64,000 nt of DNA from an uncultured Candidatus Rokubacteria bacterium (GTDB lineage: Bacteria; Methylomirabilota; Methylomirabilia; Rokubacteriales; CSP1-6): assembly GCA_963762145.1 (NCBI GenBank), contig CAVXJS010000015.1:320001-384000 (forward strand), written 5' to 3'. Position numbers and translations under genes: made by a program. Under the pieces are notes generated by a model that saw nothing but the letters and a program-made list of their open reading frames with translations, was not told the origin of the DNA and did not search any database. Below, one piece after another: positions 2,575-6,223 of this stretch (positions are counted from its first letter, which is position 1; every line of letters begins with the position of its first letter).

Positions 2575-3321
2575 CTAGCGCTTGAAGACTTCCTTCAGGA
2601 GGTCGGTGGCGCGGGCGGTCGGGTTGGTGCGGATCTGCTTCTCCTGCTCCCCCAGCACCGTGAAGAGCCCGCCCAGCCCCTTGTCCACCACGTAGCCGTC
2701 CAGGTCGAAGGTCTGGGACTTGGCGAACGGGATCGAATCGAAGCGCCCGACCAGATCCTTGTACTGCCGGCTCACGCCGACCTGATTCATGGACTGCTCG
2801 ACCATCGGTCGGAACGCGGTGGTGAGCTGCGGCGTGGTCTTGCCGCGGAAATACTCGGTGGCCGCGGTGTCCCCGCCGTTCAGGATCTTGCGGGCGTCGT
2901 CGAAGCTCATCGCGCCGATCGCGTCGAAGAAGATCACCTTGGCCTGGGGCGCGGCCCGCTCGGCGGCGCGGTTCATGCCGAGCACCAGCTCGTCGATCTG
3001 CCCGCCGTAGCCCACCGTGCGCAGCCCGCTCTCGAAGCTCCGCAGCTTCTCCGGCATCAGGATCTTGATGGCCTGGTTGGAGAAGTAGCCGTCGGTCTTC
3101 CCGGTGAGGCTCACCGTCTTCTCGGTGGCCACCTGGAGCGCTTCCTTGAGTCCCGCGCCGATCTTGGCCTCGGACAGCCCCGCCCCCGCGCTCCCCTCCC
3201 CGCCCCCCAGCCCCTTCAGCAGCTTGTCCCACTGCGCGCCGGCGGGTCCCGTCAGCACGAACAGGACCCCCGCGACGGCCAGCCACCCGGACCAGTGCCT
3301 CACTCTTCGACGTGTCCGCAT
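2575..3321 (-). CDS. DUF4197 family exported protein
   Basis: Signal peptide (..PAGAQW), [49 protein letters not shown]-like C-terminus. Confidence 0.9.
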
Positions 3322-3339: not shown

Positions 3340-4329
3340 CTAGAGGTACTGCCCGTAGCGGATCTTCTCGACGACGGCCCGGATGCGCCGGTACACGTCC
3401 ACCTGGCGCAGCAGGTCCTGGGTGGTGACGAGGCCCGCGTCGTGACCCTGCCCCGCCGCGTGGACCTTCTCCTCGAGCGCGCGACGCAGCAGGTCGCGGA
3501 TCTCGCCCCCGCTCATGCCGCCCATCGGCGGCAGCAGCGAGCGGTAATCGAGATCGTCCACCAGACGCCGATCCGCGGCGTGCTCGGCGCGCGCCCGGGT
3601 CAGCTCGAGGATCTGCTGCTGCGCGGCCGCGTCCGGCAGCGGCACCTCGACCAGGCGATCGAGCCGGCCCGGGGCCACCAGGGACGGATCGACCGCGTCG
3701 GTGCGGCTGGTCGCCGCCACCACGACGATCCGGGAGAACGCTTCCAGGGTATCGAGCTTTTCGCAGAGCGCGGCCACGATGCGGGCGCCCGCCTCGCGCG
3801 CCTGCGCCGGCGGCAGCAGATGCTCGAGCGCGAGCGCGTCGGCCTGATCGAGATACACCACCGCCCGGCCCTGCTCGCGCGCCAGGCCGAGGATCTCCTG
3901 CAGCAGCTCGCCGGTATTCGGCCCGAACTTGGAGGTGAGCGTGCCGAGCTTCAGGTGGTAGAAGATGGCCCCCGCCTCGGTGGCGAGCGCGCGCGCCAGC
4001 AGCGTCTTGCCGGTGCCCGGCGGCCCGTAGATCAGCAGGCCCTTGGGCGGGCTGATGCCCCACTTGCGATAGAGCTCGGGATCGGTCAGCGCGGTCACGA
4101 AGCTCCGCACGATGCCCTTGGCCTCCGCGAGCCCGCCGATGTCGGCGAAGGAGGTCTCCGGCTTAACCTGTACCTCGACGCGGCCGGTGAGCTCGGCGAG
4201 CTTCTCGCCGAGCTTGCTGAAGATCTCGCCCAGTCGGCGCTCGATCGCCCACTGCTGCCCCTCGACATTCTGGGAGGGGTTGTGCGGCGGCAGGGCGGCC
4301 GCGCCCGCGCGAGGCGTCTCGCTCGCCAC
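3340..4329 (-). CDS. Single-domain AAA+ protein (PAN/ARC/CDC48 clade) with degenerate catalytic motifs and C-terminal GQYL
   Basis: FADIGGL, PPKGLLIYGPPGTGKT (Walker A), VYLDQAD (Walker B E->Q), AATSRTDAVDPSLVAPGRLDR (SRH variant), ends RYGQYL. Confidence 0.9.
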   Translation of the reverse strand: MASETPRAGAAALPPHNPSQNVEGQQWAIERRLGEIFSKLGEKLAELTGRVEVQVKPETSFADIGGLAEAKGIVRSFVTALTDPELYRKWGISPPKGLLIYGPPGTGKTLLARALATEAGAIFYHLKLGTLTSKFGPNTGELLQEILGLAREQGRAVVYLDQADALALEHLLPPAQAREAGARIVAALCEKLDTLEAFSRIVVVAATSRTDAVDPSLVAPGRLDRLVEVPLPDAAAQQQILELTRARAEHAADRRLVDDLDYRSLLPPMGGMSGGEIRDLLRRALEEKVHAAGQGHDAGLVTTQDLLRQVDVYRRIRAVVEKIRYGQYL

Positions 4330-4939: not shown

Positions 4940-6157
4940 TCAGGACGCGGGCACCGGCGCGGTCACCGGTCGCGCGTAGCCGACGCGGAGCCGGACGCTC
5001 AGGCAGGAGCCGACGAGCAGGAGCACGGTGAGCGCGCTCCACATCACGGCATACCCGCGCCCGTGCGCCACGTACCCGAAGGCGATCGCTCCGAACGAGT
5101 TGCCGAGCAGGATCACCGAGCTGAAGATGCCGACCGCGCTGCCGCGGCGGCGCTCGGGCGTGACGTCCATCAGGAGGGCCGACATGGCCGGGTAGAGGAA
5201 GCCGTGGGCCGCGCCGGCCAGGAACCCGGCCAGGAAGAGGAACGGCAGCACCGGCAGCCGGAGCGCGGGCGCGAACAGGATCGCGACCAGCGCGATGATG
5301 CAGGTCGCGGAGGCCTGCACGAACATGCACGGGATGATCACCGCGCGCCGCCCGCGCACGTCGATCAGGTTGCCTCCCACCACCCGCACCAGCATCGCCG
5401 CCGCCGCGTACGCGGTGTAGAAGAGCCCGACGCTTGCGATCCCGAGCTCCTCGCCGAAGGTGGGCAGGAACGTGAAGATCGTCCCGGTCCCGAGCCCGAA
5501 GAACAGCCCGATCGCCATGTGCATGTGCCGCAGCTCGAGCAGACCTTCCCGGATGACGTGCAGGCCGGGCCGGGCGCCCAGGGCGGCCGGGCGCACGTCG
5601 CGCACTCCCCAGCACAGCGCGGCCGCGACCACCGCGATCAGGGTGGTGGACGTGAAGAACGTGGGGAAGCCGAAGCGGCGGATCACGAACTCGCCGAACA
5701 GCGGGGCGAGCGACGTGGAGACGAGGCCCGAGAGGCCGAAGATGCCCAGCGCCCACCCGCGCCGCTCCGCGGGAACCATCTCCACCACGTGGATGTAGTT
5801 CGCGACGAAGAACGCGGAGAAGGCCACGCCCTGCAGGATGCGCAGCACGCCCAGCAGGGGGAGCGGGCTCGACACCACGAAGAGCGCGCAGGACACGACG
5901 AGCGAGAGGACGCCGAGCCGCATGAAGAAGCGGCGCCCCAGGTAGTCGATGAGGGCGCCCACCACCGGCTGGCAGACGATGCCGGCCGCGCTGTAGAGGC
6001 CCTGCACGAGCCCGATATCCGCCTCGTCACCGCCGAGCCTCTGGATGTACAGCGGCAGGAGCAGGAAGGTGTTCAGCGCGCCAAAGAAGAAGAAGTTCGT
6101 GAGCATGAGCCGCGCGAACGGGCCATGGCTCAGGAGCTCGAGGGTCGAGCTGGTCAC
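4940..6157 (-). CDS. MFS transporter
   Basis: About 12 hydrophobic segments; GALIDYLGRR and GNLIDVRGRR MFS motif-A variants; ERRGWALG. Confidence 0.9.
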   Translation of the reverse strand: MTSSTLELLSHGPFARLMLTNFFFFGALNTFLLLPLYIQRLGGDEADIGLVQGLYSAAGIVCQPVVGALIDYLGRRFFMRLGVLSLVVSCALFVVSSPLPLLGVLRILQGVAFSAFFVANYIHVVEMVPAERRGWALGIFGLSGLVSTSLAPLFGEFVIRRFGFPTFFTSTTLIAVVAAALCWGVRDVRPAALGARPGLHVIREGLLELRHMHMAIGLFFGLGTGTIFTFLPTFGEELGIASVGLFYTAYAAAAMLVRVVGGNLIDVRGRRAVIIPCMFVQASATCIIALVAILFAPALRLPVLPFLFLAGFLAGAAHGFLYPAMSALLMDVTPERRRGSAVGIFSSVILLGNSFGAIAFGYVAHGRGYAVMWSALTVLLLVGSCLSVRLRVGYARPVTAPVPAS

Positions 6158-6223
6158 ACGCGTTGCGGGGGGAGCGACCGCGACAGTAGAATGGCCGGCG
6201 GCATGAATCCTCGCGAGTATAGC

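Follow-up and report, generated by a model that had tools for sequence, protein, structure and literature searches.

Work on bacterial proteasomes has been concentrated on actinobacteria. The C-terminal motif GQYL is needed by both Mpa and PafE for proteasome opening (PMC12288473; PMC6017811), and in the literature searched Mpa/ARC and Bpa/PafE are the only GQYL carriers that are named. This report deals with a further candidate, an AAA protein of 329 amino acids (aa) encoded in a stretch of 64,000 nucleotides (the window; positions 320,001 to 384,000 of contig CAVXJS010000015.1) from an uncultured Candidatus Rokubacteria bacterium of the phylum Methylomirabilota. The protein ends in GQYL, has a single AAA domain with degenerate catalytic residues, and to judge from sequence comparisons is probably an undescribed kind of proteasome cap.

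With Mpa/ARC the protein shares a classic-clade AAA module and an identical C-terminal GQYL, and both are encoded in the same genome. Mpa is a 610-aa protein with coiled-coil, OB and beta-grasp domains and canonical motifs, whereas the 329-aa protein has no N-domain and its catalytic residues are degenerate. The two are 29-32% identical, and the score against the Mpa model TIGR03689 is 104.5 bits, for a cut-off of 504.75. According to the available text of a 2025 minireview, the beta-grasp domain tucks the GQYL of Mpa under the ring, limiting 20S engagement (PMC12288473). Higher scores are obtained with the NCBIfam models of the PAN/Rpt group (NF003069, 181.9 bits; TIGR01242, 173.9 bits), followed by CDC48, FtsH and Mpa, but all are far below the cut-offs, which is 500 for PAN. 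The best structural matches also point to PAN: the top Foldseek hits are the nucleotidase domains 3whk and 3h4m, with target-normalised template modelling (TM) scores of 0.89-0.91 at 29-32% identity. As in PAN and Rpt proteins, the tail comes after a C-terminal helix and its last residue but one is Tyr; in contrast to these, the protein lacks coiled-coil and OB domains, ends in GQYL and not in HbYX, is hosted by a bacterium and has degenerate catalytic residues. Subunits carrying HbYX enter the inter-alpha pockets on ATP binding, as stated in the text available of PMC5476697.

The GQYL tail, and the proposed capping in the absence of ATP hydrolysis, are shared with Bpa/PafE. The fold is unrelated, since Bpa/PafE is described, in the portions available of the cited papers, as a four-helix-bundle dodecamer; the 329-aa protein has no match to PF10759, and the Bpa of the genome is a separate gene. 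Cdc48, VAT and Cpa differ because the protein has only one AAA domain, alignable to either D1 or D2 of VAT, and scores 163 against TIGR01243, for a cut-off of 802.65. Cpa, a Cdc48-like protein of actinobacteria, has two AAA domains and no GQYL or HbYX, and is known to interact with the bacterial 20S (PMC6017811, in part). It is therefore a second AAA protein interacting with a bacterial 20S, but the protein described here combines one AAA domain with an invariant GQYL. In archaea, several HbYX-tailed AAA rings, among which CDC48 and AMA, share one 20S, a network first predicted from the motif (Forouzan et al. 2012, PMC3493965, in part). The likeness is one of concept, different AAA rings being brought to one 20S by a common C-terminal motif; from what the source gives, the archaeal proteins carry N-domains and are active ATPases. 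For bacteria, nothing similar beyond Mpa and Cpa is reported in the open-access literature searched, and a GQYL AAA family of this sort is not described in the open-access papers and preprints searched on bacterial, Rokubacteria and Methylomirabilota/NC10 proteasomes. In the main text of the ProEnd database of HbYX proteins, as available, non-actinobacterial bacteria are treated as devoid of proteasomes and GQYL does not occur (PMC11475706). Judged by the defining features of the Mpa/ARC, PAN/Rpt, Cdc48/Cpa and Bpa groups, the protein is outside all of them, although the docking proposed for it would resemble theirs.

GQYL tails and proteasome genes in the host genome

The AAA protein ends in EKIRYGQYL. 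The 6.26-Mb assembly has 30,312 stop-to-stop frames with a length of 100 aa or more. Only 3 of these end in GQYL, and they encode Mpa, Bpa and the AAA protein; the 23 other orders in which G, Q, Y and L can be arranged are not found at the end of any of the 30,312. The occurrence of GQYL is thus far from chance. In this proteome the motif appears to mark the two established 20S caps plus the AAA protein, and this is the strongest single argument that the latter may dock on the 20S.

The host genome was searched for the genes that such docking calls for, as the initial annotation of the window had proposed, and prcA, prcB, Mpa, Dop, PafA and Pup are all present. Mpa, Dop, PrcB, PrcA and PafA, all scoring above the NCBIfam equivalog cut-offs, are encoded in one locus about 185 kb from the AAA gene on the same contig (L013:6342-12784, corresponding to G000:C15:134341-140783). 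There is no pup gene between dop and prcB, and Pup is encoded on another contig. Mpa (755.1 bits with TIGR03689) features canonical KYVG, DE, N and RPGR motifs and ends in TGQYL. Lys52 is invariant in PrcA, and we take 52 to be the number of the lysine met by activators. A PrcA lysine is the partner of the activator C-terminus according to the text available of PMC12288473. The genome also encodes HslV and HslU. The G+C content of the Mpa-Dop-PrcB-PrcA-PafA cluster is 0.657, against 0.70-0.71 in the flanks and 0.72 in the AAA gene, a difference that would be compatible with horizontal acquisition of the cluster.

The Bpa/PafE homologue (PF10759, E=1.9e-43; PDB 6bgl, E=1.7e-34) is a 155-aa protein ending in GQYL, located at G000:C19:180442-180963 (L061:4446-4910, minus strand). 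A GQYL-ending member of this group occurs therefore in a non-actinobacterial genome. As this ATP-independent activator is already encoded, the AAA protein would be a third regulator and not a substitute of Bpa. Prediction of a complex of three PrcA subunits with residues 236-329 of the AAA protein, both supplied as alignments, gave a score of 0.30 for a mark of 0.32, in a run without controls, and this weighs on neither side of the question of binding.

Structure of the AAA protein

Coordinates of the AAA gene, of its motifs and of the neighbouring genes are collected in Table 1. The match of the protein to PF00004 (AAA) has E=5e-26 and 92.1 bits, for a gathering score of 21.2. Motifs were assigned by aligning the protein, residue by residue, to the D1 and D2 domains of archaeal VAT. 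The pore loop reads SKFGPNT where VAT has SKYYGQS or SKWVGES, the Walker B VVYLDQAD for IIFIDEID, sensor-1 AATSR for GATNR, and the second region of homology (SRH) LVAPGRLD for LRRPGRFD. The AAA domain score and the Walker A are those of a classic AAA protein; the catalytic Glu, the sensor-1 Asn and the first of the two SRH arginines are missing.

Table 1. Position of the AAA gene, of the motifs it encodes and of adjacent genes in the window
Feature	Position	Strand	Remarks
Gene for single-domain AAA protein (P0002), 329 aa	3340..4329	minus	GTG start; stop codon 3340-3342
GQYL codons, residues 326-329	3343..3354	minus	proposed docking tail for the 20S alpha-ring; same tail as in Mpa and Bpa of the genome
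SRH APGR, residues 219-222	3664..3675	minus	first Arg replaced by Ala (A219); second Arg (R222) kept
Sensor-1 Ser208	3706..3708	minus	replaces Asn; VAT alignment
Walker B VVYLDQAD, residues 157-164	3838..3861	minus	D161 present; Q162 replaces the catalytic Glu
Pore loop-1 KFGP, residues 134-137	3919..3930	minus	non-canonical; strongly conserved within f1
Walker A GPPGTGKT, residues 102-109	4003..4026	minus	intact; VAT alignment; GPPGTGK[ST] in 150/157 family sequences
N-terminal helix, residues 18-39	4213..4278	minus	only structured element ahead of the AAA core; from model and conserved columns
DUF4197 gene	2575..3321	minus	signal peptide; downstream of AAA; in 17/36 loci, close relatives only
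BFN/DUF151-domain gene, 177 aa	4329..4862	minus	signal-peptide-like N-terminus; PF02577; TM0160 E=7.7e-20
MFS (major facilitator superfamily) transporter gene	4940..6160 (start approximate)	minus	upstream in 36/36 f1 loci, absent from f10 loci; lineage-level synteny

The initial annotation had described an indel-free frame of 329 codons with an intact Walker A, a DE to DQ change in Walker B, an N to S change in sensor-1, loss of the first SRH arginine and a GQYL end. All this holds in the alignment, with the gene lying on the minus strand; the plus-strand frame over 3340-4329 is open but meaningless. The pore loop, reported as replacing a K-aromatic-hydrophobic-G stretch, is indeed non-canonical, but the aromatic residue is retained as Phe135 and it is the following hydrophobic-Gly pair that is lost. 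The substitutions had been held to be hard to explain by sequencing errors, and the recurrence of the same DQ, S and A combination in 31 of 157 distinct family sequences (see below) shows that they are not errors of this kind. The gene has no indels relative to a 95%-identical relative (L047), and the ratio of nonsynonymous to synonymous substitution rates (dN/dS) is 0.11-0.32 in the comparison with 12 orthologues. It follows that the gene is under purifying selection, being maintained as a functional gene, neither an error nor a pseudogene.

The AlphaFold2 model (pLDDT 86.9, pTM 0.83) features a disordered stretch (residues 1-17), a long helix (18-39) and a short one (44-47), followed by a standard AAA core and lid, in agreement with the short N-terminal segment, devoid of coiled-coil and OB domains, that had been noted at the outset. 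The C-terminal helix spans residues 303-328, and confidence is low for the last three residues. No coiled coil, OB or beta-grasp domain precedes the tail in the model, and the lid helix continues directly into it.

Distribution and conservation of the family

AAA proteins of this type are found in 204 of 251 Methylomirabilota genomes (E<=1e-60) and in 82 of the 104 genomes of high quality. This tally, as well as that of PrcA reported below, includes five unpublished genomes (G217, G216, G076, G044, G034), none of the sequences of which has been used. In a word-indexed search, the best 120 of 4,272 matches are all 71-95% identical. Scanning of genome contigs identified 39 loci, 36 of which host family members and 3 generic AAA proteins at 28-30% identity. 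When 1.84 billion cluster representatives (50% identity) were searched exhaustively, three full-length family clusters were retrieved, plus fragments; the representatives P0124, P0137 and P0147 are 64%, 43% and 41% identical, respectively, and all end in KIRYGQYL. Beyond these three clusters, ordinary Cdc48-like and other AAA proteins were found. The family members that are named are Methylomirabilota, the names of homologues likewise assigning the organism of the window to Methylomirabilota/Rokubacteria, and in the collections searched the family, made of short proteins (~300-330 aa) with no N-domain, is restricted to this phylum.

Families of the phylum are indicated as f1, f2 and so on, the genus of the window belonging to f1. 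Conservation was analyzed at the f1 level, on 157 distinct sequences. No feature of the family is more conserved than the tail, and a check that had been suggested for it is thereby answered favourably. RYGQYL is found in 153 of the 157 sequences, and the exceptions are two proteins cut by contig ends, one missing the last residue and one with GQSL. In five more families of the phylum, 32 homologues were analyzed (40-56% identity), and every one of them ends in KIRYGQYL; a locus belonging to an unpublished genome is not part of this deep-branch set. The pore-loop decapeptide TSKFGPNTGE is exactly conserved in 123 of the 157 proteins, and the second SRH arginine is Arg in every f1 row listed, and Gly in one f10 row. 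Other positions vary. The Walker B pair may be DE, DQ, AE, DD or GE, sensor-1 may be N, S, H, A or I, and the first SRH arginine is mostly replaced by A, otherwise being R, Q, G, L, K or S. The most common combinations are DE-N-A (40 sequences), DE-S-A (36), DQ-S-A (31, window included) and DQ-A-A (9). The pair DQ is found only in proteins at least 81% identical to that of the window, plus P0036 at 76%. The Walker A and the second arginine are kept while the Walker B Glu, sensor-1 and first arginine vary; this is the pattern expected if nucleotide binding, and not hydrolysis, were selected.

The four variants DQ, TS, APGR and KFGP had been presented as a set to be looked for in homologues. Degeneracy is found in the subclade of the window, but is not family-wide, because proteins of the basal families f7 and f13 are almost all canonical. 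Canonical DE, N and R in close homologues were to speak against the initial annotation; the complete set is seen in distant homologues only, and in none of the 157 sequences.

Copies of the locus 75-94% identical to that of the window are found on contigs labelled Acidoferrum, Limnocylindria, Deferrimicrobiaceae, Dormiibacterota, Nitrosotalea (an archaeon), Verrucomicrobiia and Binatia (L014, L016, L019, L020, L023, L029, L041). These share the MFS-BFN-AAA synteny, and a few matches at 85-94% identity with a foreign phylum label stem from one series of metagenome-assembled genomes (MAGs). All are probably mis-binned Methylomirabilota.

Variation of catalytic residues along the tree

A tree of 76 rows was made with a quick method and rooted on P0180, P0182 and P0259, the nearest relatives outside of the family. 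The outgroup rows and P0147 were flagged as long branches, and polarity of the changes rests on the outgroup plus the general AAA consensus. Residues found at the four variable sites are shown in Table 2.

Table 2. Residues at pore loop-1 and at catalytic positions in families of the phylum
Group	Pore loop-1	Walker B	Sensor-1	First SRH Arg
f7, f13 (basal)	KWY[G/A] in most (also KWFA, KWRG, KLRG)	DE	N (one D)	R (one C)
f10	KWY[G/A] in all rows	DE	N or S	G
f8	KWSM, RWPV or RWAA	DE or HE	S, C or H	G
f2	[KR]VGP	DD or ED	S	A
f1	KFGP in most (KFGA, KFAA in some)	mostly DE	variable	mostly A
Genus of the window (within f1)	KFGP	mostly DQ	mostly S (also A, N)	A

Families f1 and f2 form a clade on a long stem (0.63 changes per column; support of 100 in the Shimodaira-Hasegawa-like approximate likelihood ratio test, SH-aLRT). 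Since DQ is nearly confined to the subclade of the window, and basal f7 and f13 proteins are almost all canonical, degeneracy is best read as a derived state, reached stepwise from an originally ordinary-looking AAA ATPase. Our reading is that a minimal GQYL-tailed AAA ATPase may have been progressively stripped of hydrolysis residues in one order, while selection still acted on the tail, on nucleotide binding and on a pore loop that had been remodelled.

The outgroup proteins are longer (478-517 aa; 39-41% identity), and have an uncharacterised N-domain of about 230 aa and the same lid sequence. Walker B, sensor-1 and both SRH arginines are canonical in all, the pore loop is canonical in two of the three, and GQYL is missing. 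The GQYL family may have its origin in the group to which these proteins belong.

Proposed function

The composite explanation that best fits the data, to which we assign about an even chance of being correct, is that the protein of the window would form an ATP-bound, barely hydrolysing GQYL ring that docks on the 20S and works as a nucleotide-dependent gate opener or occupancy regulator, and not as an unfoldase. The ring would be a nucleotide-bound hexamer, and the GQYL tails would insert into the pockets between PrcA subunits, the same that would receive the tails of Mpa and Bpa, the whole acting as a third cap, independent of Pup. Members from basal lineages look like working unfoldases. 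In the order of the window the first SRH arginine and the canonical pore loop would have been lost, and in its genus also the Walker B Glu and the sensor-1 Asn. Because catalytic residues are lost and the Walker A is intact, the protein is expected to bind ATP and to hydrolyse it poorly or not at all, and would stay in an ATP-bound, docking-competent state. A Walker B E-to-Q change is known to block ATP hydrolysis and not binding, and PAN loaded with a nucleotide that it cannot hydrolyse associates with the 20S and causes gate opening. The docked ring may thus hold the gate open for peptides and for unfolded or disordered substrates, or compete with Mpa and Bpa for the two 20S ends, or do both.

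A stronger version of this reading describes a third class of caps. A minimal GQYL ring would have turned, within one order, from an unfoldase into a natural Walker B trap, a pseudo-ATPase that ATP binding alone locks on the 20S with the gate open, so as to couple Pup-independent degradation to the level of ATP; the conversion would coincide with the gain of a coupled BFN/DUF151 gene, described below. This version is tentative, and we regard it as possible though well short of even.

Several data weigh against a docked gate opener. The case for docking is inferred from sequence and comparative genomics. Changes of the Walker B Glu to Gln and of the sensor-1 Asn to Ser, and loss of the first arginine, abolish hydrolysis in other AAA proteins, each being strongly harmful by itself, but the effect is known from those proteins and not from this one. 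The AAA gene and the proteasome locus are unlinked, and the conserved neighbours of the former (BFN, MFS, DUF4197) look exported or membrane-bound. A six-fold ring would fit HslV, also encoded by the genome, better than the seven-fold PrcA ring. The near-invariant KFGPNTGE shows a pore loop still under selection, which fits a passive cap poorly; because of this conservation, the pore would still contact something, and the data suggest that a purely passive plug is unlikely.

Co-occurrence with PrcA does not help much either. PrcA (TIGR03691) is found in 194 of the 251 genomes of the phylum, and because both PrcA and the AAA protein are near-universal, their association is poorly discriminating. 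In f6, both are missing (0/2 genomes each), and both genomes are 100% complete. In f13, PrcA is found in 18 of 20 genomes and the AAA protein in only 2 of 20, and a closed genome is among those lacking it; the proteasome does not need, therefore, the AAA cap. In f10 the situation is reversed, as all six genomes encode the AAA protein and none PrcA. In the five published f10 genomes that were followed up, Mpa is above cut-off in two and partial in a third, PafA/Dop fragments are found in two, a complete PrcB is encoded by a 1.6-kb contig ending where prcA should come next, and a contig end cuts PafA in the best genome. Since these pieces lie on contigs that end at the expected prcA site, prcA in f10 would be unassembled rather than absent, which we offer as an argument and not as a demonstration. 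In f1, PrcA is detected in 120 of 158 genomes and the AAA protein in 149. Assembly or binning of the proteasome locus seems to be systematically deficient in these MAGs, and the lower G+C content of the Pup-proteasome genes may be a hindrance to either. In f10 MAGs, contig breaks fall at prcA or beside it (L058-L060; G043, G041).

If true, this would be a third GQYL family, specific to the phylum, and the bacterial 20S would be served by a network of interchangeable rings, like the archaeal 20S. The family may be seen as a natural series, with the almost entirely canonical f7 and f13 at one end and the entirely degenerate genus of the window at the other, which would separate docking and gate opening from ATP hydrolysis and translocation. 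Other studies of this separation rely on non-hydrolysable nucleotides and on Walker B mutants made by engineering. As the tail comes after a plain helix instead of a beta-grasp domain, these AAA proteins may bind the 20S in vitro more readily than Mpa, and would then be useful tools.

Alternative explanations and the BFN gene

Of the other explanations, the one surviving best, though unlikely, is that the protein docks on the 20S with a negative or structural role, either as an occupancy regulator blocking Mpa and Bpa, or as a chaperone for assembly or storage of the alpha-ring. HbYX-bearing proteins that are not activators offer a comparison. The docking evidence is the same as for the gate opener, a third activator seems redundant where an ATP-dependent and an ATP-independent one are already present, and loss of catalytic and canonical pore-loop residues would suit a protein no longer processing substrates. 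In contrast, the pore loop is conserved and not decaying, the basal members look like active unfoldases, and GQYL is needed for opening in both known carriers, so that docking is expected to open the gate (PMC12288473, as far as its text is available).

A partner other than PrcA is a distinctly unlikely explanation. GQYL would bind the six-fold HslV or another protein, or the AAA protein would work outside of the proteasome with the product of the adjacent BFN gene. The distance from the proteasome locus, the match in symmetry with HslV and the larger number of f1 genomes with AAA than with PrcA all speak for this, and so does the BFN gene. This lies upstream, its stop codon overlaps the GTG of the AAA gene by one base, and the two are translationally coupled. 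BFN genes are found directly upstream of AAA in 30 of 36 f1 loci and in 10 of 10 f2 loci, but in none of the 22 f7, f8, f10 and f13 loci, for which 1.5-kb flanks were inspected. BFN gain and the disappearance of catalytic and pore-loop residues appear to map to a single branch; this is one evolutionary event, not a statistic, and the correlation is unexplained. A signal-peptide-like N-terminus is however a feature of the BFN proteins of f1 and f2, which may not be cytosolic, and the exported look of BFN speaks against its touching a cytosolic ring directly. In basal members the tail is kept in loci that have no BFN neighbour, and the tail is identical to that of two established 20S binders of the same genome, in which no other frame has GQYL.

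The protein could also be a working, perhaps slow, ATP-driven translocase feeding the 20S, in which the second arginine, the KF of the pore loop and neighbouring acidic residues compensate for what is lost. Lys-Phe is almost invariant in f1, the second SRH arginine is kept in all but one of the sequences examined, most f1 members retain DE, and basal members are almost all canonical. Against this, the protein of the window combines the changes Q162, S208 and A219 at catalytic positions, variability at exactly these positions across f1 argues for lost constraint, and none of the 157 f1-level sequences has the full DE, N and R set. We consider this explanation improbable.

Mixed rings with Mpa, in which the AAA protein would be an inactive subunit as the initial annotation had envisaged, are barely credible and found no support, because the two, although both classic-clade AAA proteins with the same tail, are only 29-32% identical, coiled-coil and OB domains that could pair with the N-terminal collar of Mpa are missing, and the closest relatives belong to a separate lineage (P0180, P0182, P0259). 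On the whole the interpretation given in that annotation is partly supported.

Other observations on the locus

Neighbours of the AAA gene in f10, where they encode DUF3568 and ThiF proteins, are unrelated to those of the window. BFN, MFS and DUF4197 have been considered as functional partners and rejected, as the synteny does not extend to f7, f8, f10 and f13. Membership in a defence system was similarly discarded. The PADLOC match to IetA of the IetAS system (79.7 bits) is weaker than that to the PAN model and reflects generic AAA similarity, the score with the NCBIfam IteA model is 74, for a cut-off of 510, and PADLOC found no match, and so no IetS protease, in the two neighbours analyzed (BFN and DUF4197). 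A 547-aa protein (P0134) resembling a BFN-AAA fusion turned out to be an over-called frame with a low-complexity N-terminus.

The gene for formate-tetrahydrofolate ligase, found at 3-2077 of the window on the minus strand, is broken up into three or more frames (Pfam pieces 10-46, 58-198 and 403-490 of 556). Compared with relatives that have a single 563-aa frame, about 12 window-specific 1-bp indels are found in this gene, and almost none in the next 4.5 kb. Either the gene is a true pseudogene, or the assembly is of poor quality at this place.

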